Assembly (NCBI GenBank): GCA_026770705.1
Contig: JANJGN010000041.1
Coordinates: 1,178,001-1,242,000, forward strand
Reading direction: 5' to 3'
DNA from: Isurus oxyrinchus
Lineage: Eukaryota
DNA length: 64,000 bases
The position numbers were made by a program, and so were the translations under genes. Under the pieces are notes generated by a model. That model was not told where the DNA came from. It ran no database searches and was given only the letters and a program-made list of their open reading frames with translations. Shown piece by piece: positions 3,975 through 49,371 of the stretch; the stretch's first letter is position 1, and every line of letters starts with the position of its first letter.

Positions 3975-4093
3975 TCAATCCTTCATGCAGCACTTGAAGA
4001 AAGGAAGACATTTCTCTTTGATGCGGGTCTCACCTCTCTTACAGCGGCGGAATCTGCATTTCCCTCCAACGCTGGGACATCCCAGTAAAGCAC
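3975..4093 (-). CDS. Beta-defensin-like gene A1, exon 2 (mature peptide (G)ALLGCPSVGGKCRFRRCKRGETRIKEKCLPFFKCCMKD*)
   Basis: Acceptor ctcctgtctcttcaccag|GT, phase 1; six cysteines in C-x6-C-x4-C-x10-C-x5-CC spacing; 11 K/R vs 3 D/E; no internal stop. Confidence 0.9.
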
Positions 4094-4289
4094 CTGGTGA
4101 AGAGACAGGAGGTTATTGACGCCACAAGCCAGGTAAGTCGATTGTGGCCAAAACAGGGAAAATGTTCACTGTTCCCCAAGTGTGGTTTATCAGAAGCACT
4201 TTATCTGTGCATTGTATTCAAGAGAGCGCCTCACAAATGAAAATGGTGGTTTGGGCTTCGCACAGCCAGAATGAAAGCAACTTCTGTCG

Positions 4290-4530
4290 CACCTTCAATT
4301 TAATATAAAAACAATTAGTGAACTTAACAGGAACATGGTGAAAAACAACTTATACCAAGCCTCATGAAATGAGGAAAGGAATTCAGGGACATCTAAAGAC
4401 ACAGCCTCCAATGTTGGATGCACATTCTGACAGGATATGTGTGGGCGCAGGTATCCCCTCAGGGTTGTAAGACTGCAAGACAAGACAGAGATGGAGATGG
4501 AGACAACAATTGGAAAAGGGAGATAAGGGA
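4290..4530 (-). mobile_element. Decayed L2 LINE 3' end inside the A1 intron
   Basis: ctctgtcttgtcttgcagtcttacaaccctgaggggatacctgcg resembles the L2 YLCNLLQPYNPPRxLR segment; homologous to 14930-15290 and 46670-47020. Confidence 0.6.
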
Positions 4531-4867
4531 AGGATTTGTCCACATGGTATTGAGTTCATGGAATGCATCATCAAGGGGCCGAATGCAAATGAGAAATACG
4601 AGGGGAAAAGGAGATCAGTTTCTATGATAAGGCTCGCTGCTGGTTATCTAAGTAAAAAAAAAAACATTTCTTGCGAATGGTGTGAAAGTGCACAAGGCTA
4701 AAAATAGTAGATTTACATTTGGGTATCATTTTTAACGGTTCTAGGCTCCTCGAGTAAAGTAAATATTTGCCCTGTACCAAGTCAGTGATAGTGCAGGCTT
4801 GAGTGGTTGAATGGACACGTGTTCCAATCAATATTGCTCAAGAGTCACTATTGAGAGACACGCTCAC

Positions 4868-4955
4868 CTCCCAATTGTACAATCTCTTGGAGCGAGATAG
4901 AGAGAGTCTCTCCCAGCAACAGGAATCCAAGTACCACGAACAGAGCTTTCGACAT
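4868..4955 (-). CDS. Beta-defensin-like gene A1, exon 1 (signal peptide plus short propiece, MSKALFVVLGFLLLGETLSISLQEIVQLG)
   Basis: ATG at 4955; basic N-terminus, hydrophobic core and T-L-S cleavage-type site; phase-1 donor GGAG|gtgagc is compatible with exon 2; intron 4094-4867. Confidence 0.88.
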
Positions 4956-5007
4956 CTTCTCCTGAGCTCCTGAGAGTCACAAGAAGATATTCGGTGCAAC
5001 GATGTTC

Positions 5008-5067
5008 TTTATAGGAATTGAGCGACTGTTCACCAGTTAATAATAACATGCACTCAGTGGCGATTGG
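5008..5067 (-). promoter_or_regulatory. A1 promoter: TATAAA (5008-5013), HNF1-like GTTAATAATAAC (5036-5047), CCAAT (5063-5067)
   Basis: TATA ~53 nt upstream of the ATG; the same layout recurs upstream of the three other exon-1 copies. Confidence 0.7.
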
Positions 5068-5379
5068 CTGCACGTTAACAGTGCTGATGATGCAATAACT
5101 ATTCCAAGCCGGATTTGTGATAATTAAGAAGGAGACAGATCTGTGTAATGATTGACCTGGAGAAGATTTAGTAAACAACGTCACTGTGTTAGAAGTAAGA
5201 ATCATTTTGCACAAAATATGGCCATTTTGGCCATTTAGCCTCTCTTGGCCTTTGCCAGAGCTACCGAATTCTGCCGACTCTATATCTCCTCATTCTCCAT
5301 AGCTCTGTCATTTTTAAAATTTCAAATTCAATCATTTCAATAATTGCATAATCTTCCATTATCCTTCCAGGAAGCACTG

Positions 5380-7540
5380 CTGGTGGATTTATTTTTCATG
5401 CCAAAGGGAATTCAATAATGGCATTGATGTGTACCATCCAGCATCAGAAACGCTGATGCCCTTTCACATAAGTTAACTTCTCGATGCCCTCGCAGCAAGT
5501 CAATATTTGTGGTTGGTGTTGACTGATCGACTTTCTTGATAAGCTCGTCTGATCATCGCCTGTGATATGAATCTGCCGTTGTTATCGCGTTCATTTTTCG
5601 GTAATTAATGCAGAGTGTTTGTAACCCATCTGTTTCCGCATCATTACAATGGCTGAACTCCAATTAGTGTGTCTAGGCGCTATCCTGCCGTGTTGAAGCA
5701 GAAATTGAATTTCCTCCTGTTCTATTGTTAATTTTACTGGATTTCATCTCTAATCGTATTGCCTTTTTGAAGTTCAGTTCCCCTGCTCAGTATCATTTAC
5801 AGCCGAAAATGCATTCCCCAATTACTTTGTATGACTGCAATAGTTTTTATTCAATCACTTTGACGCTTTTCTGAAAGGTAACAAGGACAAATTTATGTTC
5901 CTGAGTACTTCCTTATTATGCATTTAAATCAGAGGTAGGTCAGTTTCAGAATCCTTAGCCTTTACCTCTGTTCCCTTACTTACAACTACGTGTACCTCTT
6001 CCTGTTTATCCTCTCTGTTAAAAATATATTTAAACCAATTTCAATGATGCACCGGCCGGCTCTTCCTTCTACGTGGGGTACTCTACTACAGAGATTACCA
6101 CACCCAGCCAATTTTCAACCTGGTGAGGCCCGGTAAACATTGCCTTCAAATGTTCACTTGACACTGGGAACAAAACTAACAGTTTGCCCAGAGCTAAAAA
6201 ACTACGAGCATTTATCCTTTCACCTGTATTTGCCTTCGACTCTTGCTGAGGTATAACTAACATTTTCCTGCTTATCTCTGATGCCTTCCTCAATCTTTCT
6301 CTGAAAATCGCCACATGGTTCAAAAAGGTATTCTCTGAACTTTGCCCCACGAAGCTCGCCTGAATCAGTTTGAACTTTCCCCTCATTGCATGACCATAAA
6401 TTAACTCAAAAGGACTGAATCCTTTTGACACATTAAGGATGTCCGTAAAGGAAATCATAAATAATAGAATCCCTCGAAAATAACCATGTAGATAGCCTTG
6501 AACACATACGCTAATTATAGCCTTTATGCAGTGTTATCACCTTTTGGAGGCACACTGTAATTCAGGGGGATCCGCTGATTCATAAATTGTTATATTCCTA
6601 GGCTGTCCATAACTTATCTACACCGCTGTGATATGAAATTCCAACCCTGATCCGATTATATTTCTTTTGTTAATCCATATCTTGTAACGAAAGATGATTT
6701 ACTCCATTACAATCAACTTTGCTGCTTTTTTTCCTTAAAGGCAAGCTTCTGGCAATGTCGTGGACACATATATGACTGTCAGTAAGTACTGATTCCCACA
6801 TTTAGTCTGAAGGAGGTGTCCTACACAATCAATGAGGACACTGTTAAATGATTCCTCAAACGCTGGCAATGGAATTAAATGTGGAGGTTTAACAAATGCT
6901 ATAGCTTTTCCTTTAAACTGACATATGCGAAATGTTTGACAGAATTTGTGTACATCTTCATGTAGTCAAGTCGAATAGATTATTTCCTCCGTTGTCATTA
7001 GCTTGGGTTTTCCTAATTCACACATTTACAGCGATTGGAATTTCATGAGGTGCTCTCAAAATTTAATTCCAGTACACAGATGGTATCACTACTTCGTGCA
7101 ATATTGTCCACTCTCCATCTATATGAACAAGACGCTGCCTCCATTTCTTCATTGACACACTCTGTAATGCATTCTGCTTTTACTTCAGAGTAACCGGTGA
7201 GGTTTACCTGCTTTACGAGTGGGCATTGCATCTTTAGCTCCACTAATGAACTGAATACGTCAGTCTCATCCTCTTCAACACTCTCATCCTGAGCAATATT
7301 TTCAAGGATTTATCCAACCAAATGAATTTCAGCATTGTCTGCCTGTCTGTTAGAATATTTCACTTCCTGTGTAAATGTGTTCACCTGTCGTTCAGTCACC
7401 ACACAGTCTGGAAACACTAGGATTCTCTTTCTGTACAATCTCTGCTGATTCTGTCTCAACAGGCTGTTCTACTACAATAGGCTCTTGCGACACTGCAGTT
7501 GATAAAGGCTTATTTGTCTAAAATCAAAATGAAAAATTGA
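5380..7540 (-). mobile_element. Decayed Gypsy (Gmr1-type) pol: integrase upstream of RT
   Basis: GFSPFELIYGH integrase C-terminus (ORF 6069-6458); RT start (SNWSSAIVM...CINYRKMNAIT) lies at lower coordinates, i.e. downstream on the minus strand. Confidence 0.85.
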
Positions 7541-7545
7541 ACAAC

Positions 7546-8305
7546 TGTAATAGCCTATACTGGTATGCTTGAGATGCAACTCTGAATTCAGAAATAAAAC
7601 CATCAATCTTCACGAGGTTTTTAATGTAAAACTAAAGTAAACATTTATTAAATTAACAAAAAATTGTAACGTATGCACATGTATACAAATTATTAACGTA
7701 ATATATTTATCAACTTAATTGCTCCCAGTTAAATCTTCACCAAGGCACAAATAACTAATAGACTTTGTACAGACACCAGGCAAAGCACATTTGAACTTAT
7801 AAATTCAAATTGCCATTCATTTCAATTTGTTTCTTCCGCAGAAACAGCTCCACGCTGACAGGATGGTTTGATCTTAGCTGTCAATGACTCGTATGAAAAA
7901 CTAATTTCTGCTTAAATCTAGCTTTCACTTTGAATGCAAATTTTCATTTGCTTTACTAGTTTTGTTTTTAATTTTACCTCTGCTAATAATAATCCTTTCA
8001 TACCACCAATTTTATTAGCAATATAAACACACATTGCTTGGTGTCGCCTAGCTAGGAGCAATACTTTACCCAATCTTTTGAATGGTGTGTTCAACAAATA
8101 TGCATTCCATTTTACCTTTTACTGCTTCTCTTTATCTAACGAAAATCGAAAACTACGATATATCAATCAAACAGCCTGGCTGGGTTTCATCCAGTTAAGA
8201 TACAGAGACATAAATGAAGACATAGACACTACTACAATCCCAATATTTAAACAATTCCCTTAGCTTTATGGACAGTAATCAATTCATTTCAAGGCATTGT
8301 CAATA
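7546..8305 (-). mobile_element. LTR-like segment inserted between the protease and integrase regions of the Gypsy element
   Basis: TG-start, AT-rich and non-coding, interrupts pol; protease C-terminus resumes at 8306-8440; paralogue at ~39865-40630. Confidence 0.6.
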
Positions 8306-8809
8306 CCTGTCACGCGGCCATATATTTCCCGAGACTAAAATGTACAATTCAGGGCCAATTTCTGCACGATCCCAACAATCGCATCTCCTGATTGCAATTT
8401 ATTATTGTAAAGTCACTTGATACAATGAAATAGATTTCAAATTGGTGTCTTAACTTCATCTTCCCATCTTTGTACCACAAACCTTAAAACTTTTCCTAAA
8501 CAGAAAGCTGTCCTTATACATTTTGCACCCTTTCCTAAATCGTCTTTAAACGAAAATTAATCATAATTGTCGATAATAACCCAAGCAACTATCCTAGTTG
8601 CCTTGTTCCACCAATCTACGTGCGACCCTCGGTGAGATGCTGCATTACCTATAAACTTCGGTCAGGTTTTTATGGCTCTGCCGCTGTGTGTCTCCCGCTG
8701 GCAGATGTGGGGAGACATCTTAATCACGACTCACTCCGCTAGGACAGTAATGCCCGTGTTTCAGAAATCTCCATTGCCCCTCCCCCTTTATGCAGAAGGT
8801 GCAGTATTT

Positions 8810-9300
8810 CCCTTGTGCACAGTCCCATCTCCATAACTATCGGTTTGAACACACCTGGAGCACTGTGCATAGTTCGAACCTCCATGTCCCTTGGTTCGAC
8901 TACAACTGGAGCCATGTGCACAGCTCTGGCCTCCACACCCCTCTGTTAGACCGCACGTGTAGCACTGTGAACAGTTCCATCCGCCATATCTATCGGTTAT
9001 ACCATGTCAGGGGCACTGTGAACAGCTCTGGCCTCCATATACCTCGGATCCACCAAACGTAGAGAACTGTGCACAGTGCCAGCCTCCATATCACTCGGCT
9101 AGACGACACTTGGAGCACTGTGCACCTTTCCAGCCTCCATATCCCTCGGTTAGACCACAATTGGAGCACTGTGCACAGTTCAGGCCTCCATATTACTGGG
9201 TTAGACCACATTGGAGCAGCACGCACAGTGCTGGTCTCCATATCCATCGGTTAGACCACAGCTGGAGAACAGTGCACAATTCTGGTCTCCGGAGAATTTG
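8810..9300 (+). repeat. 51-bp minisatellite (about 10 units) derived from CR1 RT
   Basis: Unit ctccatatccctcggttagaccacaattggagcactgtgcacagttcaggc; ctcca recurs at 9135, 9186 and 9236; translates as VRPQLEHCAQF. Confidence 0.9.
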
Positions 9301-9371
9301 GTTACATGGCAACTGGGTGCGGCAGAGCCTTGAAAGTTGGTAGCACTGAATTATTCCTTTCTGTTTCCAAG

Positions 9372-9490
9372 GACAACGGAGAGAGTGTGATAATGTGTGA
9401 GGCACCTGCAGATTTGTCCAATGTTACAGATATGAGAGGTGGTTCTTGGCATACTTCATATTTTGGCTTACTTGCTGCATAAGAAAATAG
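9372..9490 (+). pseudogene. Beta-defensin-like pseudogene A3, exon 2: QRRECDNV*GTCRFVQCYRYERWFLAYFIFWLTCCIRK*
   Basis: Acceptor ttcctttctgtttccaag|; C-x6-C-x4-C-x9-[Y]-x6-CC; internal TGA at 9398-9400; Cys4 position is TAC; no exon 1 found upstream (Gypsy junction at ~8440). Confidence 0.85.
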
Positions 9491-9689
9491 TTGCCTAAAC
9501 ATAACACGTCCCTATATGTGATATGTCCATGGCTCTGACTGGAGTTAACTGTAATTCCATAAATCATGCTCTGATACATTCTGAGGATCCAATGACCACG
9601 GCCCACTGATTTCTGCATCATGTCCATAAAACTGGCTGCATCGATCACTGCCTCTTGTCCATGTCTCAATTTGCACTCGGATCGGAGCG

Positions 9690-10580
9690 TCACCATATTG
9701 GCGTGGAGGTCAGGTAATGGCAGGGCCACATTGACACCCGGCTTCTCCAACATAATCACACTGGAATAATCATAACTTAAAAGGCAAAGTCCCAGGACCA
9801 TTGCCCACATCCCTGGGTAAGTTATGACCCACTGAATGAAAAGTTCCTCCCAACGTGTTGACAAAGAGAAATGCATAACTGTAGGCTTGTGAGAGGTGTG
9901 CTCAATGCAGACTGCAGTCTCTCTGTTGTCTGAAGACATGTGGGCAAACAGTAGAAATGGAAGATCTTGCTGAGTCCCACATACAATTTTCCCGAATCTG
10001 CGCAATATATACTCCTCCATCTTATACACAACATGGAAAAAGCACTGAGAAAATTAAATGCACATAATGTTCTTTGCTGTGGCACCTGCATTTCCACCAA
10101 GAGTGGCTCAGGGGCACTGTTACAGACCTAGGTGTCCGAGCCCTGAATGGCAGAATAGGCCTGAGTCAGGTTAACCAACAAGAGGGATGTTTCTTCACGA
10201 CATCATCCTCATAAATCTACTTGCTCACAGGTGCATCTGTCCCTGACAGTGTTGATAGGAATGACCACCACACAGGCCTTGTGATGAGGAACTCCTGTCT
10301 TCGCACTGAGGACACACTCCATTGTATTCTCTGGGAATCATTGGATTCAATGTGTTGGCTCAGACCAGATCACCCAGCTGAGATCTCAACATGCACAAGG
10401 CGTCAAGGGTCATTAGCAGCAGCGAAATTAAATTCAAATACAACCGGCAAGGTCATCGCCTGACATATTCCTGACACCACAATAAGGTTCAAAGCCAGGG
10501 ATCAAGCCTGTTTCACTGAAGCATGCAGGAGAGTGTCAAGTGCAAGGCCAGGCATATGGAAAAGAAAACGATGTTCTAAC
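9690..10580 (+). mobile_element. Decayed CR1-group LINE APE domain
   Basis: ASVPDSVDRNDHHTGLV...LRTEDTLHCILW (ORF 10221-10463) matches the APE SDH motif region. Confidence 0.75.
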
Positions 10581-10899
10581 ATTGTTAGGAATCAGCTCAT
10601 TGATACATTGGTGTAATTATTGTTACATACAATAGCAATTCTACTGTACATAGTGTTATTGATGAAATTTCTTGATATGTAGGTATTGTTGGAACGTTGT
10701 TAAGATGCCTTTGACTTTGCTTCTCTTTAACAGTCAATTGCTTTTATGTAGCTTTAAGGAGAGTAAAAACATAAGGTTTGAACTGAGGGATTACAATTCG
10801 CCACATTTGGGCTCCAATGGCTCCAACATCAGAATTAATCAGGAGCCCGAAAGTGCTTGCTGACTGACTAGAAGAATAGCCTGAGGAATCGATTTGTAA

Positions 10900-11250
10900 T
10901 GTGATGGGGAATTCGTTGCAGGACAGTCTGGAGCACTCTGCACTTGGAGCAGAATAAAAATATAGAGTACAAGCTAAGGTTATATTGTTGTATGGAAGCC
11001 AGAATCACTGTGCCCGTGGTCAAGAATATTAAATACTCGGTAAGATTCGAGCGAAGTTGGATATGTAGAAGATATTGCCGCTGCTTTGTTATTCTCAGAA
11101 AGGGACACATTGACATACAAAGGGTAACAAGTGTTGGATCTCTCTTCCACAAATGGCAATTAGTGTAAGGAAGATTTTAACTTTAAAGATGAGATGGAGA
11201 GATTTTTGAACGTCAAATGCTTGAGGGGAATGGGGCAAAGGCAGTTTTAT
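10900..11250 (+). mobile_element. CR1 LINE 3' fragment
   Basis: Degenerate ORF2 C-terminus (RVTSVGSL...FKDEMERFL). Confidence 0.55.
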
Positions 11251-11879
11251 GGACACAGGACATGGACTGGTGTGCACCAGTCAGTGTGTGGGTGCATCCA
11301 TGAGTTGTAGGCTGTGGCAGATGGTAAGACATGAAGAATAATTCAGGAGCTGACTATCGACAAACGTAGCCCAGCCGGATGATGTGCAGTGCACCCAGCT
11401 TTGAGCAGGTAGAGTGTGAGACACCGCTTCAGGCACAGGGTCACAATCCAATACCCCAGCAGGAATCAACTGAACAAGATCAGTGCCAGGCTGCTCGAAT
11501 ATGTTGGACAACTTCGTGGATTCACCAGGACGATGAGAGTTCTTGTTGAGACTGTCATCGTGCTAGAGATGCACCTGGTTCTGATGGGGAATGGGAGGAG
11601 AGTGTTAGACCAGGGAGGACAGTGTCAGCTGTTCGAGGAGGAGAGGGGCAAGAAGGTGAGCTTGAGTCAGTCAGATGCACCTCTGAGGTGCATTACTCCA
11701 CCTCTGCAGCGCATCCTTCGGAATCTCCAGTGACTATTCCGAAAGTCTGGGCCCCTGACCATGACTGCCACTTAACTTTCTGCCGATTTGTGCCAACGTG
11801 TCCATTGCCCCCATTCAAGGGAAGTGGGTTCTAGGAGGGCACAAATGCTGCCACGTGAAAATTGTGTCTGATCAGCACT

Positions 11880-12150
11880 TGACCGTTCAAGGGAACAACA
11901 ACATTTGGAGCATTGCCCCACAGAATGGCCGATCAATGGCCTGACATAGCCACACTCACCGAATGATACCCCAAAGCCAATGGCTCAGACTTCCCATCAC
12001 TCTCCCTGGCAATAATCATCACCAGTGGCAGGGTCGGCTCACCAGATTTGGCAGCCCAGTGGGATACAGACTGAAGGGGACGGGCCTGCAAGGACTCGAA
12101 ATTCAATGCACATCTAAAGAAACCTCATGGCATTGGGTCAAAGGATGGGA
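11880..12150 (+). mobile_element. CR1-group LINE APE N-terminal fragment
   Basis: PDIATLTE...PITLPG...QGR...ETSWHWVK, matching the other copies in the window. Confidence 0.55.
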
Positions 12151-12589
12151 CTGTAGTCTCCATTTGGCACACTATATATATATAGACATACACCCTACTG
12201 ATAAAACATCTCCTCGCTTTATCTCACAGCATTAGATCAATTAATCTGATGATATGTGGACACTCATTAGTTGAGTGATTGCATATTGTCCCTAAAGGAG
12301 GGCAATGATCTTCTGGATCATATCCAGGGACAGCTCATTCCTATCTGGAGTCAGACAGGATGGCGACTGGGGAAAGGGCAGTTCCGCTTCAGGGGTAAAT
12401 TATTAACGAACCAGCAGGGGACTAAAGTTGGAAATATTTAACCATCAGTGCAGATGTGGAAGATGGAGTGAGAGAAGAGAAAGGGAGATGGAGGGAGAGA
12501 CACAGAGTTAGCATGAGCGGAAGTTGGAGCTGGAGAAGGAGGAGCAAAGGTCACAAAAATAGCCAAACAGCGGAACACAACGTGAAGCT

Positions 12590-12750
12590 TTAACTCCATT
12601 CCTTACAGTATGGTGGGTGTATGGACACCTCGTGGGCTGCACAAGTTCAAGAATGTGGCTCCCCCACCATCTTCTCAAGGGAAAAATTACTGATGAGCAG
12701 TAAATTCTGGACCCAGCCAGCGAAGCCCATTTCCGTGAATCAATGAAAAT
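12590..12750 (+). mobile_element. CR1-group LINE 3' tail
   Basis: gttcaagaa...caccatcttctcaaggg...cccagccagcgaagccc...tgaatcaatgaaaa; paralogue at 44270-44430. Confidence 0.7.
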
Positions 12751-14029
12751 ATGATCAAGAGAAAGTAATCCAGATATAGTGAAGAGAGAGGGAGGAACTG
12801 AGCAAGAGATTCAGAAAGGGATGAAATAAAGAAAGAGTTGGAGAAACATAGACACTGGTTTGGGGGAGACAGTATGCGTGAAAGAGAGAAATGGAGAAAT
12901 AACTTGCAAGGCAAGAGGGAGGGTGACAGTGAGTGTCAGATGGAGGTCCAACCGCGGCCTCTGGGAGTGGGACATTTGCCTGGGCACTTTGTACTAGGGG
13001 CAGTCACATTATTCAGGACAGGGCTTCTGATTCGATCAGTGGCTAGGGACAAGAGGGCAGGCATGGGGAACACAGGAGGAAGAACTGGAGGAGCCTCAGG
13101 CTTCCTGATTGTGCTACAGGCTCTGGCAGCCAGTAAGGATGGAAGCGGCGGCTGTAGTGTGCAGGGGGAAAGTGACCATGGCACCAGGGCAGCGAGAGCT
13201 ATTCAAGCGTTGGGAGTTTATAGGAATACCCCGTTTTTGGGGATGTGCAGCCAAGGGAGCAGGCAATGTAGTCGAGAGCAGGATTCCGGAGTGCAGTGTT
13301 CACGGCTCTGGGCTGGAGAGGGGATTTGCAGTGTGATGAAGAAGGTCCAGTGTGTTTGGTCCACTGACACATGTGTAGACCAATGAACCCTGCCCCACTG
13401 CTATTGAATCACGTACCTACATCAAGGCCCTTGGGGCCCTTCAGTGCCGCTGTGTCAACCCATTGACTGTGGTGGGGAGGGGAGGTCAGGGAATGCCCAG
13501 GGCACATTGGCATCTTCCCCTGCCAATGCAGTCACACACTCGCAGAATCAGAACTCACATCCATTGTCCCAAAGGCCAGGGCCATCACCATCCCCGGAAG
13601 CAGCCTGTACCTCCTGGCCGGACGGCTGTCAGAGGTTGGCAGGTACTCTCTGTGGACGCTTCCAACATTGAGTTAGAATTCCATGAAGCCTAGATTCGTT
13701 AGGTTAAAGACAGGTCAGAAATTCTGGAGAAGCAGCTGAACAGCAGATTTCACCAATGTTAAGAACACGGCGGTGAGTTAGTGTTGAACTGTCATCACTT
13801 CAGTCACGTGGGACACAAGGAACTCAATGTTCCCGCAACAAGCTCTTCAAACACCTGTGACATAAGGGCTAGAGAATCTTTATCATTGATACTAATCGCT
13901 GGATAAATATTGGTCCATGGCATCAGGTGTATCTCCCCAACTCTTCTTCCAGTAGTGGCAGTGGGGTATATTCTAGGTTGGGGAATTGGGAATATCAGTA
14001 GAAATATACTGATGATAATTCACAAAGTA

Positions 14030-14290
14030 AGTGCAGGAAAGATGAAGAGAATGTCTTCATGATGCAGCGAAGTATTGTGATCCGGAATGTACTGCCTGAA
14101 AAGGTAACAGAAGGAGATTCAATCGCACCTTTCAAAAGGGAAATTATATGAATAATTGACAGGGAAGGTCATGACAGGGCGATGGGGGAAGTGAGGTTAT
14201 GGGGGAGGCATGATTAGGTAAACCTCTCAATGAACCAGCAGAGAAACAATGGGCCAAATAGCCTTCATCTCAGCTGAATGATTCTAAATT
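14030..14290 (+). mobile_element. CR1 3' end upstream of the defensin A2 promoter
   Basis: QRSIVIRNVLPEKVTEGDSIAPFK-type C-terminus plus 3' UTR; equivalent segments at ~5200-5380 (-), ~37350-37520 (-) and ~45740-45990 (+). Confidence 0.7.
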
Positions 14291-14453
14291 TTTCACAGTG
14301 AAAAATTCGTTTAATCCTTCACCTGTTCAATTATTATGCTTATCGGTGTGTCTGTTGATTAATAAAATCCGGTTTGGGAGGCACATTTAGATGTGGATTC
14401 CAGTTTCTGTCGGTCTCAGTTAGTGATGTATTCCTTTGCTGTGGACAAGGTTG

Positions 14454-14515
14454 AGCCAACCCTCACCGTGTGTCTGCAATTATTAACGACAGAATTCTCT
14501 GTCTGTTCATATAAA
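14454..14515 (+). promoter_or_regulatory. A2 promoter remnant (GCCAA, ATTATTAAC HNF1-like, TATAAA 14510-14515)
   Basis: Alignable to the A1 promoter over ~200 nt. Confidence 0.6.
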
Positions 14516-15290: not shown

Positions 15291-15299
15291 GCATCATTC

Positions 15300-19000: not shown

Positions 19001-19099
19001 CCTGGGCTTTCAATTTTGCAATTAATTTTTAGCAATAGATCACGCATCTGCTACTTTCTTAAGAAAGGTGTTAGCGTTGTGTGCTGCCTGTGTATACAG

Positions 19100-37519: not shown

Positions 37520-40500
37520 ATGCTCGTGTCTTTATTTTTCATGCCAAAGGGCATTCAATAACTTGCATTGATGTGGACGATCCAGCATCTGAAATTATGA
37601 TGCACTTTCAGATAAGGGTACTTGTCAATACCCTCGCAGCAAGGATTATTTTTGAGGTAGGTGTTGACTGTCCGACTTTCTTGATATGCTTATCTGATCG
37701 TCGCCTGTGATATGAGTCTGCCTTTCTTATCGCGTTCATTTTTCGGTAATTAATACATGGTGCTAGTATCCCATCTGGTTTCCACACCATAACAATGGTT
37801 GAACTCCAATTACTGTGGCTAGGCCCTATCATGTTATTCTGAAGCAAGAATTCAATTTCCTCCCGCACTTTAGATAATTTTACAGGATTTCATCTATATC
37901 CGTGTTGCTCAATTCCCCGCCTCAGTGTTATGTACAGCCAAAGATGCTTTCTATAATTTATTACCAATAATTGCTTTGTATGACTGCAATCGTTCTTTTC
38001 TGTCACTCTGACGTTTTGGTGGAAGGGAACTTAACCACACATTTATGTTCCTAAGTCCTTCCTCAATATTCAATTAAATCTGAGGTAGGTCAGTTTCAGA
38101 ACCCTTATGCTTTACCTCTGTTCCTTTACTTACAACTAGCTGTACCTCTTCTGTCGAAAGGTCATGAGGACTCGAAACGTCAACTCTTTTCTTCTCCGTC
38201 GATGCTGCCAGACCTGCTGAGTTTTTCCAAGTAATTCTGTTTTTGTTTTGGATTTCCAGCATCCGCAGTTTTTTTTTTTTGTTTTTATAGCTGTACCTCT
38301 TTCTGTTTATCGTGTCTGTTAAAATATCTTTAAGCACTTTTACATGGTACAGTCGCCGGCACTTCCTTCTACCTGGGTTAATTTACGACATAGTTTACAA
38401 CAAACAGTCCCTTTTCAATCTGGCAAGGCCCACTGAACATTGCCTTCAAATGTTCACCTAATGCTAGGAACAAAACTATCACTAAACTAACAGCCAAAAA
38501 CCTAAGAGTCTCAGCCCTTTCAGCTGAATTTGCCTTCGTCACTTGCTGAAGTATAATTAATTGTTTCCTTGTTAGCTCACGTGGCTTCCTTAATCTTTCT
38601 CTGAACATTGCCATATATTCCAAGAAACTACTTTCTGAATTTTGACCCACCAATTTCTTCTGAATCAGTTTGAACTTTTCCCTCAGTTCATGACCATAAA
38701 TTAACTCAAAAGGACTAAACCCTGTTGACACATTAAGGATTTCCGTAATGGAAAACAACAAAAATGGAATCCCTCGTAATCAACCATGTGGATATTCTTG
38801 ATCACTGACGCTAATTATAGTGCTTATGCACCGTTATCAACTTTCTAAGACACACTGTGATTCAGGGTCATCCGCTGACGTCATAAATTGTTTTATTCCT
38901 AGGCTATCCATATCTTATCTAAACAGTTGTCACATGAAACTCGAACCCTGATCCGACTGTATTTCTTTTGGTAATCCATATCATGTAATGAAAAGTGGTT
39001 TACTCCACTACAATCAACTTTGCTGCACTTTTGCTTAAAGGTAAGTTTCTGGAAATCTTGTGGACACATATATGATTGTCAGTAAGTACTGATTCACACT
39101 TTTAGCATAAGTAGCTGTCCTTCACAATCAATATGAACACTGTTAAATGGTTCCACAAACGGTGGCATTTGAATTAAATGTGGAGGTTTAACTGATGCAT
39201 TATGTTTTCCTTTCACCGGACATGTGCGATTTTATTGACAGAATTAGGCTACATCTTTATGTAGTCAAGTCCAATAGCTTAATTTCTCCGTTGGAATAAG
39301 CTTGGCTTTTCGTAATTCCCACAGGTACAGCAATTTGCATTTTATGAGGCACTCTCAAAATTTAATTCCACTACACAGATGGTATCACTACTTCGTGCAC
39401 TACTGCCACTTTCCATCTATATGAGCAAGATGCTGCCTCCATTTCTTCATTAACAAATTGTTCTGAATGTAGTTAAACTCTGTAATGCATTTTGTTTCTG
39501 CTACAGAATAAACTGTCTGGTTCATCTGCATTACGACTGGACACTGCAAATTTAGCTCCACTAATGAACTCTATACTTCACTCTCATCCTCTTCAACCCT
39601 CTCATCCTGAGCAATATTTTCCAATATTTATCCAGCCATTGAATTTCAGCATTGTCTGCCCGTGTGTTAGGTTATTCCTCTTCATGCGTAAAGGTGCACA
39701 CCTACGGTTTAGTCACCACACAATCTGGAAACAAACCAGGATTCTCTTTCTGTACAAACTCTGCGGATCCTGTCTCAAAAGACTGTCCCACTACAATAGG
39801 CTATTACGATGCAGCAGTTGATAAATACTCAGTTGTTTAAATTCAAGAGGGAAAATTGAACAACTGTCATAGGCCTTACTGGCATGATTTAGATGCAAGT
39901 CGGAATTCAGAAATAAAACCAATAATAATCACAAGGTTTTTTTAATATAAAACTAATGTAAGCATTTATTAATTTAACAACAAATTGTAACATCTGCACA
40001 TGTCTAAAAATTATTAACATAATACATTTTAAACAAATTCTGAAATTATGTGCTCCCAGATAAATCTTCACCAAGGCACCAATAACTGATAGACTTTGAA
40101 TAGACACCAGGCCAAGCAAATCTGACCTTAAAAATTCAAAATGCGGTTCATTTCAATTTGTTTATTTTGCAGACACAGTTCCAGGCGAACAGGCTGGTTT
40201 GCTCTTAGCTGTCTGTGACTCGTACAGACAAACGCATTTCTGTTTAAATCTAGCTTTCCCTTTGAATGCAAATTTTCAATTGCATTACAAGTTTTTTTTA
40301 CTTTCCTTCTCCTAACAATAATCCTTTTATTCCACCAATTTTATTAGCAATACTTGTTTGTGTCACCTAGCTTGGTGCAAGGTTTTCTCCATTCCTTTGA
40401 ATGCTTTATTCAACAAATGTGCATTCCATTTTACCTTATACTGCTCCCATTTATCTAATTAAAACCCCAAGCTACTATGCATCATATCACCCAGCCGAGG

Positions 40501-42700
40501 TGGCTTTCGTCCAGATAAGAGACACAGTCACAAACATAGACACAGACACTACAACAATTCCAGTTTTGAAACAATTTCCTATAACATTGTCGACATTAAT
40601 CACTTAATGTCAAATAATTGTCATTACCTGTCACCCGGCCATATAATTCCGCAGAATAAAATGAACCCTGCATGAGCAGTTCCTCTACGACCCCCTCAAC
40701 CAATTCCCTCGATAGCAATTCATTGTTTTTAAAGTTACTTGATACAATGAAATAGGTTTGACTCCTCCAGTAATCCCACCAATTAACAAGCTCCTGCTAT
40801 TAACCTCCTGCAGAACAAATGACACTCTTCCAAACTATTTTGGAATGTCTAGCACTCTTGTCCATTGACATTTTGGCATCATTTCCTGCTTGCCCCTATT
40901 AACATGGATATTCCTTCCATTTCCAAGTAAAATCTCTAAACTTCTTAGTACCCTGCCCTTCAAGACTCCCTTGGGTAAGTTGAGAACGCATTTCCACTTC
41001 TCTAGCTATCACTGATTCTACCTGTTCCAACTGTTCAAAAAAATAATATATTTGTCTATCTTGCAAAAAGTCCTCGGAGCTCACCATAGGCTTATTGCAA
41101 AACTGATCAGAGTTCCTGTCAGTGAAATTGGTCTCCCGTTGAACCTCCAACATTTTGATCTCATATGTTCAACTTCAGTAGTGTTAACTTACCAGTTTCC
41201 TTCCTTCAACGCTACTTTCCACCTTTCGATATTTCATAGGCTGACACCCTTCAGCTTGAATCTTTTCCCAACGATTTCAACATGACTTGCTTTGCTTCAT
41301 CTCAAATTTTCCTGCTGATTTCCATCTTGCATTTTTCCTGCATTCAACTGATAATCTGTAATTTCGTAAACACAGGCTAAAACAGCAGCTTGGCTGTTCT
41401 TTATGGCTTTGTTTTTCTTTTACCTGCGCCTCAGTATTTACAGGAATGCTATTTTTTGATATTTCCATAATCATAAAGTCTTTTACTTTTTCAAAAGTCT
41501 TGTCTAATTTCAATGCCCTCAACCATTGATCCCAGGTTATTTCTGTTTTCCTTTGCAAAATCTGCACGTCTGAATAGGAATCCTTTTTATCGTACTTCCC
41601 AACTACTGATATAACACTCTCATAAGCATTTAGTAGTGCTTTCTTTACTATCTCGTTATATGCAGATTGTTCCTCTGATAAGCTTGTACCTAGCAAACAC
41701 TTTATTACATTACAGTCCAAACATCTATTACACAATTCAATTCCATTGCGACCTTTTCAAATGAGGCAAAATATCTTTCAAAACCATCCTCTCTTAATTT
41801 AGACACTAACCGAAGATGTTTATTTAAAGTAAATTTTTGAAAGGAATCACTAACTTTTTTTTCTAAGTTACACATTCAACAATTCGTACTGTATGCCTTC
41901 TTTCCCTCTCTGCAGCGCTCTATCTTTCTTATTCCTTTTAACAATTGCTAACTTCTCTCTCTGAAGTTGAAATTTAAGCTTTTGCAGTTCTACCTCTTGT
42001 TTTACGTTATTTTCCTTTTTCCAGCTCACCTTTCTCCATACAAGCTTTTTAATGCCCATTTATTTTAACCTGTTCTTTTCTTATTCAAGTTTTATTTTTT
42101 TTCCACAGTTTATTATAATTTGAATTATTTTTTTCTTGTTCACATTTTTCTCTTTCTGACAATTCATGCCTTTGTCTTTGCTTTCTCTTCCCCGATCAAG
42201 CTGCCAAACTTGCAATTGAAGTCATTCCACTTCTATCTGAGGCACATTAGTCCCACTTGCCCCTTCCTACAACTTTAAGACCTTTAACCATATCATCCTG
42301 ACGAAATTCCACTTTTATCTCTACACTGCACTTTTCAGATAACATAATAAGCTGAGTTTTAGTCAGTGATTTCACTGCTTCCCAGTAAAATTTTCACTCC
42401 CAGAAAAGGCATAGCAACTGCAAAGCCTTTTTTTAGTCCAAACTTTAAGGTCCCTCGGCACAAACTCCTGAGTTCAGTGTTCTTCATGGACTCGTATCCT
42501 TTGGATTCATAACATCCATCCCAAAGAACGAATGTAAATAATGCCACAAATTTTCCCCCAAATTTTTCATGACCAGAGGAGATGTTAATTGTTGTGTAAT
42601 CCAAATCCCAGGGGAAACTTGGCTTACCTTGTTGTTGTGTTCTGGAAATGAGATGAAAACCTATTGATCTCAACAGCAACAGGTATAATCACATGTTTGG
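37520..42700 (-). mobile_element. Decayed Gmr1-type Gypsy element: SCAN-like gag (~40800-42550), nested LTR (~39865-40630), integrase, RT
   Basis: LSEEQSAYNEIVKKALLNAYE...WDQWLRALK (gag); GFSPFELIYGHELR (IN); EIEFLLQNNMIGPSHSNWSSTIVMVWKPDG...CINYRKMNA (RT). Confidence 0.9.
38151..38287 (+). mobile_element. Young short Penelope-terminus insertion with a 14-bp TSD
   Basis: TAGCTGTACCTCTT at 38137-38150 and 38288-38301; empty site at ~5987-6000 in the paralogous block. Confidence 0.85.
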
Positions 42701-45700
42701 GGTCTTTAACATTAAAAATATGTTTATTCATTAACTAAGAAGAAAACCTAAGCTAGTTTGACAAAGGCAATTGTAAAGGCTGTGTTATTCAAATCCCAGC
42801 GTGCAACTTGAAACAACTGTCAAGAACCAATTCTGCTGTTTGTTATTTCGAAATGCAGACTTTGAACTTAGTAGGAACAAGACCACCAAATCTCGCAATT
42901 TAGAAATAAAAATTAATTAAACATTTATTAATTTAACAAACAAATTAAACACATACATATTGCTCCACCCATATCTATGATATATTTCAACAAATCCCCA
43001 AAATAATCAGCCACAGGCAAATCTTCACTGCAACAACAGTAACCACATAGACTTCAAATAGACCCACTCCACCAGTATCATGAAAACAGCAGGGATGCGG
43101 GAAATAATTAAGCCTGGCTCACTGAAGGTTTCAGGAGCGCGTCCCAGGAGTAGGACATAAGAATCAGGGGTCAACCTGGTGAAGCCATAATGCAGGAATA
43201 ATAGCATGTCAAAGAGCGAGAGCAGCAAGCAACAGACGGAGTTAAGTAGACCTGCAACCAACGAATCAGATGTATCTTTTGCTGCCCTGTCACAGTCAGT
43301 TGTCAATGGTGGTGGGAAATTAAGTAACTGACAAGGAGAGGAGGCTTTACAAATATCCCCAGCAGCAATGGTGAGGGTGTTCAGCATATCAGTGCAAGAG
43401 GTAAGTCTGAGATCTCCTGCACCAGAAATCCCTGTCTTCAGCCAGTTCGATTTACTGCATGTGAGGTCATGAAGTTCTGAATGCATTGGATACTGGAAAG
43501 GCCTAAGGCTCTGACCTCCTTCCAGCAATAGCAAGGCAGAAGGAGTCACTTCAAAACAGCCCAGGGCTGAGGGTGGAGGAATGATTGGAGGAAGGCGCCG
43601 TGCTTACAAATATCCCAGGAATGACACAGCAGAGACACTTAGGGAATTAATTGGGGGCTAATCAGCCTCTTCAGCCTATGCGAACAATCAGTTTGACTCT
43701 TAACCTCATTCGCCCATCTTTGTTCCACAACCCTTAAAAGATTTCCTAAACAGAAAGCTATCCATGCCAGTTCTATTCCTTTTCCATAAATCGCCTTTAA
43801 AAGAAAAAAAAATAATCCTAATTCTCGATAATAACCAAAGCAACTGTCCTAGTTGCCTTTTGCCTTCCATCTACGTGCTGACATTCAGTGAGATTCTGCA
43901 TTGCCTAAAAACATTGTTCAGGGTTTTATGCCCCTGCCGCAGCCTGTGTTCCCCTGGCCGAGGTGGGGAGACATTTTAATACTCATTCACTTTGCTGGGC
44001 CAGTAATGCCCTACAAGGTGGTAGGGTACCTCTAACCCTGGCCTGTGTTTCAAAACCCTCCGTTGCACCGCCACCTTAATGTAGAAGCTGCGGCAATTCA
44101 CTTGTGCAAAGTCCCATCTCCGTAATGCTCGCTTGGATCAGACGTGAGCAGTGTGCACAGTTCTGATCTCCAAATCCCTCTGTTTGTCCACACCTGGAGC
44201 ACAGTACACTGGAGAATGAGGTGCAAAGGTGGCAAAAATAGCTTCACATTGGAACAGAGCCTGAACCTTTAACTCCATCCCTAACAGCATGGTTGGTGTA
44301 CTTACACTACATGCACTGCAGTCTTTCAAGAAGGCGGCTCAGCCACTCTCAAGGGGGAAATTAGGGATGCACAGTGCATTCTAGACCCAGCCAGGGAAGC
44401 CCACATCCTGTGAGTGAATGAAAAAAAATCAAGACATATTAATCGAGATATGGAGATGTAGAGAGAGGGGAAATGAGCAAGAGATTTAGAAAGGGATGCA
44501 ATAAGGAAAGAGGCGGAGAAACATAGAAACCTGTTAGGGGGAGAGAGGGTGCGTGATAGAGAGAAATGAAGAGAGAAATTGCAAGACAAAACGGCAAGAT
44601 GAAAGTAAGTGTGAGATGGAGGCCCATCTGCAGAAAAAGAGATGCCTCCGTGAGTGGGTCATTTACCTGGGCACTTTGTATTAGGGTGCGGTCACAATTT
44701 TCTGGACAGGATCTTCTGTATTGATCAGTGGCCAGGGATATGAGGGTATGGCTGCGACAGAGACAGGCATGGGGAACTCAGGACTATCTCCTGAATGGAG
44801 GAGCCTGAGGCTTCATGATTGTGCAACAGGCTCTGGTGGCTGTAGAGTGCAGGGGGAAAATAACCATGGCATCATGGTAGTGGGAATGATTCATGCGGAG
44901 AGAGGTGATAGGAATAGTTGTTTCTTGCTGAAGTGCTGCTAAGGGAGCAGGCAATGTAGCTGAGAGCAGGAGTCCGGAAGGCAGTGTGCTGCTTGGCCAG
45001 TTCGCGGCACTGGGCTGGAGAGGGGCTTTGCAGTGGGATGGAGAGGGTCCAGTGTTTTGTTCAATGGCACATTGTTGACAGCCCACTGCGCACTGAATCA
45101 CGCAACTACCACTATGTGCATTGATCACCACCCCTTGGGGGCACGTCTGTGCGGCTGCCTCAACCTATTGACTATGGCGGGCGGGGAGGTCAGGGGATGC
45201 CTAGGGCAATTTGGCATCTTCCTGCTTCAACGCAGTCACACACTCGCAGAATCGGAGCTCACAGCCTTTGTCACCAGGCCAGGGACATCACCATCCCCGG
45301 GAATGGCCTGTACCCGCTGGCGGTACAAGACACCCACTGGTCGAAAGGGGCTGACTGTGGCTACCACCAACATTGAGTCTGACTCCTATAACGCCACGAG
45401 TCATTAGGTCAAACACAGGAGAGGTAACCTGGAGAAGCAGCTGAACAGCAACATTCACCAGTGTTCAGAACAAGATGCTGAATTATTGTTGAACTGTCAT
45501 CAATTCTGTCAGTCTGGACACATGGAACTAAATTTGGCCGCAGCAAGCTCCCTCAAATACAAGTGACGGAATGGCTGGAAAATATGTTTCATTGATACAT
45601 TTGCTTGATAATTTTATGCCCAATGGCATCAGGAGTAACTCCCCAACTCTTCTCCCAGTAGTGGCAATGGGGTATATTCGATTGTGGGATATTGGGAAAT

Positions 45701-46267
45701 CAGTTGAAATATATTGATCATAATTCACAATGTAATTCGAAGGAAGATGAAGAGAATGTCTTTATGGCACAGCGAGTTGTTGTAATCTCGAATGCGCTGC
45801 CTGGAAGGGTAACAGAAGCAGATTCAATAGCACCTTTCAAAATGGGAATTATATCAATAATTGGCAAGAAAAAAAATGGCAGGGCGATGGGGAGGATAAG
45901 TTATGGAGGGGCCATTATTCGGTAAACCTCTCAATGAAGCAGCAGATACAACATGGGCCAACTGGCCCTCATCACTGCGGAATGATTCTAATGTTTTCAC
46001 AGTGAACAAATCCTTTAATCCTTCACCTGTTCAATCGTTACACGTATCAGTGCCTCTGTTGATTTATAAATGCCGGTTTGGGAAGATCAATTAGAAGTGG
46101 ATTCCAGTTACTGTCAGTCGCAGTTAGTGAAATGTTCTTTTGACGTGCAAAAGGTTCAGTCAATCCTCATCTTGTGTCAGCACTTATTAACGGCAGAATC
46201 CTCTCTCGGTTCATATAAAGAGCATCCGCACACCATTCATCTCATGTGACTCTGGGGCACTCGGTGG

Positions 46268-47668
46268 ATGATATGGTAATTACTGCTCTTGGTGCCTTGA
46301 CTGCTGCTGCTGGTGGGGTCCAAGCTTATCGGTAGGATATCGACAGGGGTTATCTCACAGTTGCCAAACTCTAGAAACATTCGCTGGAACAGGAGAAGGC
46401 CATTCAGCCCCTCAAACATGTTCTTACATTCAATTGGATCATGGCTGATAGAAATCTTAATTCCATTGGTCAACCTTGCTTCCATGAACATGAAAATCCT
46501 TACGAGACAGAAAGCATTCAGGCTGAGTGCGAGCCTCTTTCAAAAACTGAACACTTTATTTTTAGTAACCCAAGCTCAACAATGAACAACGGAGGAGCTA
46601 TCCTCAGACACCTCGTATTTCCCATCCACATTCTGCCCCTTGGTGAGATATTGAACTAGTCGTACAGAATGTTTACCAATCCCTCCATCGACTCGCCCCT
46701 CTGACTCTCTGCAAACTTCTTTAGCGCAAAAACATGTGCCCCACTAACTCTGCCCTCCATCCCATTCTGAGGTATTAGCTGGCTGGCCTTTGGCTACCAT
46801 GCCTTAAGCTCATTGGGTCCAAGGCTGGGATTAACCACTGCAAAGCTATCCACCCCTCTGTCCACCCTGGATATGGCCCTTCAATCCAACCTCTTCAAGT
46901 GAGTGTTGGGTCATCTGCCATTTATACATGTTTTTGTGACTCTGTGTCAAATCCTTTTTCCACCATGCTGTCTTGAGGCACCATGTTAAATTTCATGAAG
47001 TTGTTGCATAAGCTGCATCGTTCTTATTGTGAATTGTGCTGGACTCCATATCCCTTGGTTAGACCAAACATAGAGTATTGTGCACAATCCTGGTCTCCTT
47101 AGCTCTTGGTTAGAACATACTTAGAGCACTGTGCACAGTATTAAGCTCCATATCTCGCGATTAGACCACACGCTGATCACAGTGCACATTTCTGTTCTCC
47201 ATATCTTCTGGTTAGAACACTCTCAGAACACTGAGCACAGTGCTTGTCACCGTATTCCTCGCTTAGACCATGCGTGGAAACTGTGCATAGTTGGATTTTC
47301 CATACTACTCTGTTAGACCGCACTTGGAGCACTTTGCAAAGTTCCCATCTCCATACCTCTCGGTTAGACCACAATCGGAGCACAGTTCTGTCTCCATATC
47401 ATTCGGTTAGACCACATATGCATCACTTAGCACAGTTCTGGTCTCCTTATGCGAACTCTAGCCCACACCTGGTTCAGGTGCAATTGGGTGCCCAGCGGTT
47501 CTGACAAGCGTCACTATTCAGCTTTCTTTCTCTTTTCCAGTCCCTATCGTGCTGTGCGACGAAGGTGGAAGGTTCTGTAGAAGACTCCCATGTGAGGATT
47601 GTGACACAACCAGGCCCAACAGGAGATAGAATCTTCCTTTCACGTTCAGGTGCAGCCAACCTCTTTAG
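46268..47668 (+). pseudogene. Beta-defensin-like pseudogene B2: exon 1 46268-46331 (MIW*LLLLVP*LLLLVGSKLI), exon 2 47541-47668 (PIVLCDEGGRFCRRLPCEDCDTTRPNRR*NLPFTFRCSQPL*)
   Basis: TATAAA 46214-46219; donor G|gtagga; strong acceptor tttctcttttccag|; Cys4 is TAG (47627-47629) and Cys6 is AGC; AATAAA 47806-47811. Confidence 0.88.
47030..47475 (+). repeat. 51-bp CR1-derived minisatellite (about 9 units) in the B2 intron
   Basis: Same unit as the 8810 and 15300 arrays; a 2-unit remnant also lies at ~44100-44205. Confidence 0.88.
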
Positions 47669-49371
47669 GTAACCAAGAGGTAGGATGAACCACTGTGAGC
47701 CCCACCTGAGGCTCCGACTGAAGCAAACTGGAATTTGTGTCGTTCAGGCTCTGCTACCTTCTGTAGGTCCAATGGTTAATGACCCACAGCTTTCTGAATC
47801 ATGTGAATAAAACTGGCTTCGTTGATCACCGCTTCGTATCAATGCCACATTTCTCACTCAGATCCATGTATCACCCTAGTGACAGGGAGTGAGGGGAGGT
47901 CAGGATATGGCGGAGCTGCACTGGCTTCATGTAAATCCAAAACAGTCACCGCCACAGTGTCATAATTTATTTTTAATGCCCTAGGGTAGCCCGTTGCCAA
48001 CCCTGTGTACGTTCTGCCAGACAGACCCTCAAGATCCGAAGGCATATTGGTAGAACATGGGAGGGGGCAGTGGTATAGTGGTATTGACAAGTAGTATGTC
48101 ATAAATGATCAGCTGTCCTTTTTTACTAACAGGCAGTTTGATGTTCATTCTTGATCATGCGCAACTTAGAATTATCAGAAAGCAAGCGAAAGACCCATGC
48201 TCAACCTATGGGGACCCGGGTACAATTCCCGCAATGGCAGATGGTGGAATTTGAATTTAATAAATATCTGGAGATAAAAATTGCAACATTGACCAAGGAA
48301 ACTATTACCGAATGTCAGGAAAACCATAACATGTTTAAGTTATATTAAGTCTGGACACGAATGAAGAACATATACCTTCAAGTCACTCTTGAATATCCAA
48401 GTCTGAAAACAAAAGGCTTGGCTGAAAATGTTGCCCATCAACCACCGCAACTAACACCTTTCAACACCCCCTCCCCAGCCCCAACCCACGACCCCTACCG
48501 ACTTTCTATTCACATCATTAAATGCGTCCCCATCAAGTCCAGGATTGCAGTGCCGATTGGAAGCAGACCCAGTTTTGAATCTTTCATTGTCTCCTGCCCT
48601 TTGCGACGGTCACATTGCAGTTAAATTGATGTCAGATGTCTGCTGTTGGAGAAACCCCATCGCTCCCTCTTTCATCAGTCTAGGAGCTTTGTAGAAATGG
48701 CAACAGAGGAACATGAGCCAAAGTGCCCTGTATCTTGTCACAGGTTCCTTTCCAAATTGCAAATTATTAATGCGTCAGAAAGAGTAACTGTTGCTTAAAA
48801 TAATGAATAATTAAACAGCCAATACACATTTTTATTCTCTATTTAATTTAGCAGGAAAATGTGTGGATTTTTTTGTTGTTATCTGTATTCTTAATTTGAT
48901 AGATAAAACAGAGGATCATCGTTTCTGTTAAACAATACTTATTTCAGCTGATAATTTACTGGTTCATTTTTTGGGTATTTCAAGTTACTTATTCGGAAAT
49001 GAATCCAGGAAATATATTGCTAACTTATTGATTTTATTTTATATAATTAGTTTGTTCAAACCTCGGCTACAGTAACATCTAATTGTGGAAAAATATTGTA
49101 TTTTTGACGAGTTTCTGTTTTGGCAGGGATGGCCAAGTCACTTTGAGTGCTGATCTTTTTGTTAAACGTCTTTGCATATTTCATGAAACGTATTGATAGC
49201 ATGCAAATGACAAATTAAATCTTAGTGTAAATACATAATGATGTAGGGATGTAAACAGCGGTTTTGCTCTCCTAATACCTCGATTGTAAAAGGGCAAATG
49301 AAGGCAGACTTACATTTCTGAGAACATTTCTGTCGGACCTTGGTTGTTTCTAATGGACTTTGATTTTCTAA

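Follow-up and report, generated by a model that had tools for sequence, protein, structure and literature searches.

A probable beta-defensin cluster with one intact gene in the shark Isurus oxyrinchus

Does the genome of a cartilaginous fish contain beta-defensin genes, and how are such genes built and arranged there? The question is raised by a stretch of 64,000 nucleotides (nt) from the shark Isurus oxyrinchus (GenBank assembly GCA_026770705.1, contig JANJGN010000041.1, positions 1,178,001 to 1,242,000 of the forward strand), called the window below. A preliminary description made from its letters had reported one intact beta-defensin gene and five pseudogenes. In the present work, we examine this locus by means of sequence comparison, family searches and structure prediction. 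We will show that the window contains nine gene-derived units, here called a, b, g, c, d, f, b', g' and e, of which eight are broken. The intact gene and the five pseudogenes were all confirmed, while two more decayed copies (g and g') and a segmental duplication had been missed. It is very likely that the locus represents a cartilaginous-fish beta-defensin cluster that evolves by duplication and decay.

The intact gene and its family

Gene a, on the reverse strand, is the only unbroken copy, with both splice sites, the open reading frame (ORF), a TATA box, an AATAAA signal and all six cysteines (Cys) present. The TATA box (TATAAA, 5008..5013, -) is located 58 nt 5' of the ATG, within a promoter of ca 330 nt that is conserved in a, f, c and e. 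The coding part of exon 1 (4868..4955, -) comprises 88 nt, i.e. 29 codons and one nucleotide, and ends at the phase-1 donor G/GTGAGC. It encodes a hydrophobic signal peptide and some 10 more residues, with the cleavage placed by eye near residue 19. The hydropathy of this signal peptide peaks at 3.2 over residues 4-15, and it is top-ranked in a window-wide scan for an ATG, a hydrophobic stretch and a donor. The intron of 774 nt (4094..4867, -), whose 5' part is homologous to the introns of f, c, e, b and b', contains a single degenerate 51-bp unit (4196-4160, E 8e-5) and ends in a pyrimidine-rich acceptor, CCAG/GT, so that a phase-1 intron stands directly before the cysteine domain.

The 119 coding nt of exon 2 (3975..4093, -), closed by a TGA stop, carry the pattern C-x6-C-x4-C-x10-C-x5-CC and a net charge of +8. 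No other six-Cys exon of the window is intact, and the strict motif occurs once there versus 0 times in 60 shuffles. The AATAAA signal (3832..3837, -) follows 138 nt past the stop, within a conserved 3' flank (ca 3710-3974). The spliced product is predicted to have 68 residues, consisting of the signal peptide, ca 15 residues up to Cys1 and the six-Cys domain. A relaxed scan for Cys exons behind pyrimidine-rich acceptors gave no second intact copy, with a filter that missed d and c and is thus not exhaustive.

Evidence that gene a was maintained as protein-coding comes from its comparison with copy f, its duplicate. In exon 1, differences are seen at 4 of 64 nonsynonymous sites and at 5 of 23 synonymous ones (ratio of nonsynonymous to synonymous divergence, dN/dS, ca 0.26), against a non-coding background of 0.182 (232/1276). 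The exon thus appears to have been under purifying selection (binomial p 0.006, Fisher p 0.051).

The family assignment was examined with exon 2 of gene a alone as the query in all searches. In the PDB sequence search, the sole match is mallard AvBD3 (7LZL) with an expectation value (E) of 0.048, and Defensin_beta_2 and Defensin_beta are the only Pfam families matched. The top three matches in the Atlas are beta-defensin clusters, the best with a score of 0.86 and 183/256 features, and all ten best family matches are concordant. AlphaFold, run on the single sequence, gave a model with a predicted local distance difference test score (pLDDT) of 79.8 and three strands, at residues 11-14, 22-25 and 34-38. 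Foldseek places human beta-defensins at all of ranks 1-11, with template-modelling (TM) scores of 0.58-0.65. With VIA-align, 28 of 48,161 chains reach Z >= 2, and the best is HBD4 (Z 4.3, root-mean-square deviation 2.1, 37 residues aligned). Vertebrate beta-defensins have the spacing C-x6-C-x(3-5)-C-x(8-11)-C-x(5-7)-CC, and the x6, x4, x10, x5, CC of gene a fits this range.

It is important to point out that a number of results weigh against this assignment. Each family-level score is weak on its own. The Pfam gathering cut-offs are missed, by PF00711 with 10.3 vs 21 bits and by PF13841 with 13.7 vs 22.2, a shortfall that weakens formal Pfam membership but not the resemblance to beta-defensins. 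An Atlas score below 0.9 counts as a lead only. The remaining AlphaFold models have pLDDT 41-67, and just 2 of the 5 models exceed 65; none of the 59 Foldseek matches has E <= 0.001, and the VIA-align Z of HBD4 is tied within 1 with those of the sea-anemone peptide helianthamide and an oyster big defensin. A profile of the paralogs searched against the PDB gave no beta-defensin, the best match being an alpha-defensin at E 0.78. Beta-defensins usually carry a glycine two residues before Cys4; it is missing in gene a and present in AvBD3. The selection signal is limited to the signal-peptide exon and to few sites. Finally, no intact neighbour gene that could serve as a synteny anchor was found in the Pfam scans of 227 stop-free stretches (24 + 150 + 53), which took in the majority of the stretches with 62-89 codons (231) and of those with more (79), and few under 62 codons.

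Beta-defensin is nevertheless the best reading, because the individually weak lines agree with one another and with the gene structure. The Cys spacing, the two-exon organization with its phase-1 intron, the signal peptide, the cationic charge and the three-stranded fold (at weak absolute scores), along with four concordant weak searches, support the identity proposed in the preliminary description. Judged from its sequence and predicted fold, gene a would with high probability work like a beta-defensin.

Relatives of gene a were also looked for in protein collections, and none was found among candidates of 22-70 residues or among longer ones. The sole match among 1.84 billion representatives, P0002, is a repetitive protein of 417 residues in which 16 residues are matched seven times and which has no defensin domain; it was rejected as spurious.

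Broken copies and their duplication

The second exons of b to e hold their Cys positions, as in a, in a single exon, and 17 of the 24 positions are kept. As had been described, most of the lost cysteines are single-base changes: in 6 of the 7 cases the present codon differs from one for Cys by a single base, and in the remaining case, a TAG in e, by two. For copy b, the intron (8444..9371, +) is present but an exon 1 was not found; a candidate at ca 6850-7350 was discarded, since it did not rise above background and scored lower than an unrelated tile. Exon 2 of b (9372..9490, +) has 5 of 6 Cys, with Cys4 lost, an internal TGA and the polyA signal CATAAA; its 3' half alone gave no beta-defensin match in the PDB. 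Pseudogene c has an exon 1 (14565..14628, +) with a TATA box at -55, an intact phase-1 donor and a TGA at codon 11 that is also found in e. Its exon 2 (15977..16104, +) has a broken acceptor (CAT) and lacks Cys2 and Cys5. Folding of this exon gave no defensin-like strands and a predicted TM score of 0.33, which is uninformative for a single sequence with two Cys lost. Pseudogene e combines an exon 1 (46268..46331, +) with stops at codons 4 and 11, an intact donor and a TATA box at -54 with an exon 2 and 3' flank (47541..47811, +), where the exon (47541-47668) has a stop at the Cys4 position and has lost Cys6, and AATAAA lies at 47806-47811.

Pseudogene d, on the reverse strand, consists of an exon 2 (21654..21772, -) with an internal TGA and with Cys1 and Cys3 lost. 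It is an inverted relative of b, with which it has ca 1.5 kb of downstream DNA in common, partly repeat-derived. A tentative upstream exon (21951..22292, -) combines a start at 22292 that is frameshifted and resembles a signal peptide with a consensus donor, G/GTAAGT, at 21951/21950, which is 178 nt 5' of exon 2; it is marginal, at rank 17 of 2586 ATGs and with several stops. In this upstream region, a 67-residue open frame had no Atlas match, and a 99-codon open frame of acidic helical character had no Pfam match. The start of the d intron (21871-21937) is repeated directly, at 78% identity over 67 nt, ca 2 kb upstream at 23948-24014, next to a short tandem repeat with an 84-nt period (24015-24212). 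A defensin-like C-x5-CC at ca 24020 (-) falls in this direct repeat in a frame with stops, and was rejected.

The remaining copies are more incomplete. Copy f (36767..37440, -) retains the promoter and an open exon 1 (37102-37015), while its donor is lost (A/GA) and exon 2 is absent; its intron is cut at 36767 by a fragment of a G-protein-coupled receptor (GPCR) gene. The intron-only remnant noted earlier, b' (43610..44209, +), was confirmed at 43698-44209 with 72% identity to the b intron, and exon 2 has been lost here through a deletion that brought the minisatellite up against DNA homologous to that from 12530 on. Copies g and g' were found by a profile of the exon-2 regions. In g (13120..13520, +; profile E 1.6e-7), a heavily decayed exon 2 with an insertion and stops is followed by the 3' flank, and there is no exon 1. 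In g' (44830..45230, +; profile E 3.4e-7), an AG acceptor opens a phase-1 frame with four Cys that continues to a CC-stop at 44942, again followed by the 3' flank. A selenocysteine reading of the TGA codons was considered and dropped, as Rfam gave 0 matches of any family in the window.

The five exon-2 copies (4093-3975 in a, 9372-9490 in b, 15977-16104 in c, 21772-21654 in d and 47541-47668 in e) and the four exon-1 copies (starting at 4955 in a, 14565 in c, 37102 in f and 46268 in e) are located where the preliminary description had put them. Its statement that all copies are in phase 1 is borne out on both sides of the intron only for a and e; in c the donor is intact and the acceptor broken, in f the donor is lost, and in b and d, with no identifiable exon 1, the phase is read from the acceptor.

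We now come to the homology among the copies, which had been claimed for the exons and for their 3' flanks. The 270-nt 3' flanks of a to e align with pairwise z values of 19-58, and none of 800 segments drawn at random from the window scores as high as any of the 10 pairs. Those of g and g' match those of a to e at z 4-11. The promoter and exon-1 regions align among a, f, c and e (E 1e-14 to 1e-130), and the 5' parts of the introns among a, f, c, e, b and b'. Homology is thus shown for flanks, promoters and introns but mostly not for the coding exons alone, where only a-b, a-e and c-e of the 10 pairs beat all 800 controls. Using one aligner and equal lengths, and excluding c-e as recent duplicates, the mean score over 9 paralog pairs is 14.9 for exon 2, compared with 70.4 and 80.7 for two segments on the 3' side, while random pairs give -7.4 +/- 10.4. 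The peptide exon has diverged faster than its untranslated neighbour. Poorly alignable peptide exons are what is expected for fast-evolving defensins, and we infer diversifying selection before the copies died; pathogen-driven diversification would be expected to let the peptide exons outpace the 3' flanks in this way.

Another feature in common is a 51-bp minisatellite in the introns of b (8829-9290), c (15320..15883, +; non-coding), e (47044..47450, +) and b' (44090-44209). It is family-specific, nearly indel-free and 65-72% diverged, and has expanded in b, c and e. The possibility that the repeat encodes a His-rich pro-domain was rejected, since 26 units in six frames showed no synonymous excess (absolute z <= 0.9) and no clear stop deficit. 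In six copies the intron also carries, close to its 5' end, a retroposon-like insert (ca 14680-14900, 46380-46600, 4620-4830, 36770-36980, 43630-43800 and 8444-8520), which may resemble shark retroposon tails. Should this element be specific to elasmobranchs, the expansion would be dated by it. Passages of PMC5499810 gave no help in matching it to a named shark SINE (short interspersed nuclear element).

Self-comparison of the window shows how much of the cluster arose. The block at 4615..16624, with a, b, g and c, has collinear same-strand matches of 72-80% identity to the block at 36767..48325, with f, b', g' and e. Hence f corresponds to a, the intron-only remnant to b, g' to g and e to c. 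The blocks are too diverged, at 72-80% identity, for this to be an assembly artefact. A tree of the flanks, the check proposed with the preliminary description, groups c with e (100/97) and g with g' (100/100), and leaves a, b and d unplaced. The four units come from one block duplication and not from independent births. Copies c and e have the codon-11 stop in common but no common exon-2 lesion, and their comparison gives no sign of purifying selection, with proportions of nonsynonymous and synonymous differences (pN and pS) of 0.32 and 0.19 in exon 1 and a pN of 0.20, near background, in exon 2. Therefore, the gene was copied as a recently dead one, whose exon-1 stop preceded the block duplication. 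The sequence thus shows two stages. In the older one, local duplications accompanied by inversions produced a, b, c, d and g; later, a single tandem duplication of the a-b-g-c block, of ca 12 kb, produced f, b', g' and e.

The local expansion in both orientations that had been suggested is thus shown. No copies were found beyond 48.3 kb, over the final 15.7 kb of the window, and if the cluster extends further it would do so leftward or within the assembly gap of 172 N (19419-19590) that lies inside the cluster between c and d.

Proposed function and its alternatives

Going by what is established for the family, the innate-immune function of gene a can be pictured as follows. The gene would be transcribed and spliced into the 68-residue precursor, which would be secreted, cut after the signal peptide and perhaps trimmed further. 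The mature peptide would form three disulfides, for which spacing and fold suggest the pairing C1-C5, C2-C4 and C3-C6, and fold into a three-stranded sheet. Its basic surface would bind and disrupt anionic microbial membranes at epithelia, and the peptide may also attract leukocytes.

A different possibility is that gene a encodes a secreted peptide of the beta-defensin fold whose main job is not antimicrobial, be it in the reproductive tract or egg case, as a receptor or chemokine-like ligand, or in a venom or spine gland in the manner of crotamine and the platypus defensin-like peptides. Beta-defensins have reproductive roles and have been recruited to venom. The fold is common to crotamine, helianthamide and anemone peptides, all of which are among our weak matches, and chemotaxis by beta-defensins is described in PMC8231796. 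The best sequence-level matches, on the other hand, are host-defence beta-defensins, the charge of +8 fits membrane activity, and the window has no pointer to venom or gonad, so that we regard a non-immune main role as unlikely. The case that the six-Cys spacing is convergent, in an unrelated cysteine-rich family or in a dispersed repeat that happens to have such a frame, could be built on the database scores, all under their thresholds, and on paralog exons near random similarity. It would have to accommodate that the signal exon, the motif, the fold and the place and phase of the intron all agree with beta-defensins together, and also the preservation of promoter, intron and 3' flank in copies that are confined to 3.7-48.3 kb. 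A dispersed transposon, which had been named as the alternative, is likewise not supported within the window by this confinement, and no transposase or reverse transcriptase linked to the unit was found in the 227 stretches scanned against Pfam. Convergence or a repeat is hence scarcely probable.

One can also ask whether the whole cluster is dead, gene a being simply the least decayed copy whose expression has been lost. Of the nine units only one is unbroken, the protein collections yielded no close relative, and the selection test has few sites, as the Fisher p of 0.051 reflects. Yet c and e have each gained several lesions over the ca 20-25% divergence since the duplication, while a kept its ORF, six Cys, splice sites, TATA and AATAAA; the deficit of amino-acid changes in its exon 1 (p 0.006) also speaks against a dead gene, and we give this scenario very little weight. 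The beta-defensin cluster with one maintained gene remains the reading adopted in the following.

Surroundings of the cluster and comparison with known systems

Beyond defensins, the Pfam scans found only three features. The first, SNRNP27 at 55017-55409 (+), was considered as a synteny anchor and rejected, being an intronless, frameshifted retrocopy (Pfam E 6.4e-11; human protein E 7e-19). The second, a set of GIY-YIG-containing open frames (49940-50804, -; Pfam E 5e-4), is presumably a Penelope-like retroelement. The third is one of two fragments of GPR139-like rhodopsin receptors, located at 36376-36783 (-) and 53182-53541 (+), the latter being that detected by Pfam. The former begins at the breakpoint that truncates the f intron and is 59% identical to a horn-shark 'probable GPR139' (E 1e-41; 2 matches among 63 candidates); as a single marker, it points to an elasmobranch host. 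The GPR139-like receptor group may be expanded in sharks. Frames that by eye resemble a decayed long-terminal-repeat retrotransposon integrase or reverse transcriptase, with no Pfam match, lie in both duplication halves (6069-6533, 38378-38779 (-) and 37608-37889 (-)). A dispersed 100-bp repeat is present in inverted orientation at 38149-38248 and 49370-49469 (91% identity), with weaker copies at 3395-3487 and 22734-22836, and is probably a young tail of a SINE or a long interspersed nuclear element (LINE). A direct match of 900 bp at 58% identity, 28550-29461 vs 33777-34694, likely represents old LINE fragments.

Tetrapod beta-defensins, such as mammalian DEFB, avian AvBD, HBD2 and HBD4, have the same organization as gene a: two coding exons, a phase-1 intron, the signal peptide in exon 1 and six Cys in exon 2 with the spacing C-x6-C-x4-C-x(9-11)-C-x(5-7)-CC, in a cationic peptide with a three-stranded fold. 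Two exons, a phase-1 intron and six Cys in exon 2 also make up the published beta-defensin gene plan, as given in PMC11541337 and PMC7203481. Tetrapod clusters are, like the shark locus, tandem and accompanied by pseudogenes. Unlike the tetrapod genes, gene a stays below the Pfam cut-offs, lacks the glycine before Cys4 and has an exon 1 that is ca 10 codons longer than the signal peptide, and the locus differs from the tetrapod clusters in its cartilaginous-fish host and in having one intact gene among nine units. Teleost beta-defensins (defb1-3) have the six-Cys motif, the signal peptide and a cationic mature peptide in common with gene a. Their genes, according to PMC11541337, have three exons with the Cys split 4+2 and are unclustered in sea bream and sea bass, whereas the shark locus has two exons, is clustered and has no second intron splitting the Cys 4+2.

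A phase-1 intron just before the six-Cys domain is, according to PMC7203481, also found in invertebrate big defensins. Those of amphioxus, molluscs and horseshoe crab are like gene a in this intron, and the oyster protein's C-terminal domain matches its fold with Z 3.5; gene a differs in lacking a large N-terminal hydrophobic domain, with only ca 15 residues from signal peptide to Cys1, and in its vertebrate-type Cys spacing. We have also considered that gene a keeps a hydrophobic N-terminal stub of ca 15 residues, and the dead d a region of ca 110 codons between signal peptide (22292) and phase-1 donor (21951), as an intronization model predicts, but find this very unlikely. Crotamine, the platypus defensin-like peptide and the anemone peptides resemble gene a in fold, through weak matches; they rank below host-defence beta-defensins in the sequence and Foldseek searches, and there is no venom context here.

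The lineage is what sets the locus apart. No chondrichthyan defensin is described in the titles and abstract openings of the open-access PMC and bioRxiv matches listed, while supplements, subscription journals and genome annotations may hold shark entries. The range of vertebrate beta-defensins is put as 'from teleosts to mammals' in a 2020 review (PMC7203481). In section 14 of a 2019 comparison of fish immunity (PMC6795676), the shark antimicrobials are transferrin, squalamine and kenojeinin, with no defensin among them, and in passages of PMC10707392 the word 'defensin' occurs only within a reference. The locus thus belongs to a known family and has the two exons of the tetrapod type, but its lineage is one from which the family apparently had not been reported; birth-and-death gene clusters are already well known.

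A history of the family proposed in PMC8231796, which also gives the pairing C1-C5/C2-C4/C3-C6, has a two-exon ancestor, an intron gain in fish and clusters later in mammals. If the locus is indeed from a cartilaginous fish with no earlier report, it would supply the outgroup that has been lacking for the structure and the clustering of defensin genes. A two-exon ancestor would then be supported, and clustering would either predate the split of bony and cartilaginous fishes or have arisen independently. We see about an even chance that no beta-defensin cluster of a chondrichthyan has been described before and that this one shows two exons and clustering to be the ancestral state in jawed vertebrates. 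DNA probes taken from the conserved promoter and 3' flank could find such genes, which protein searches miss, in the genomes of other sharks, rays and chimaeras, and the peptide of the intact gene a is a candidate antimicrobial from a marine vertebrate. The beta-defensin family and its clustered two-exon layout may thus be as old as the jawed vertebrates.

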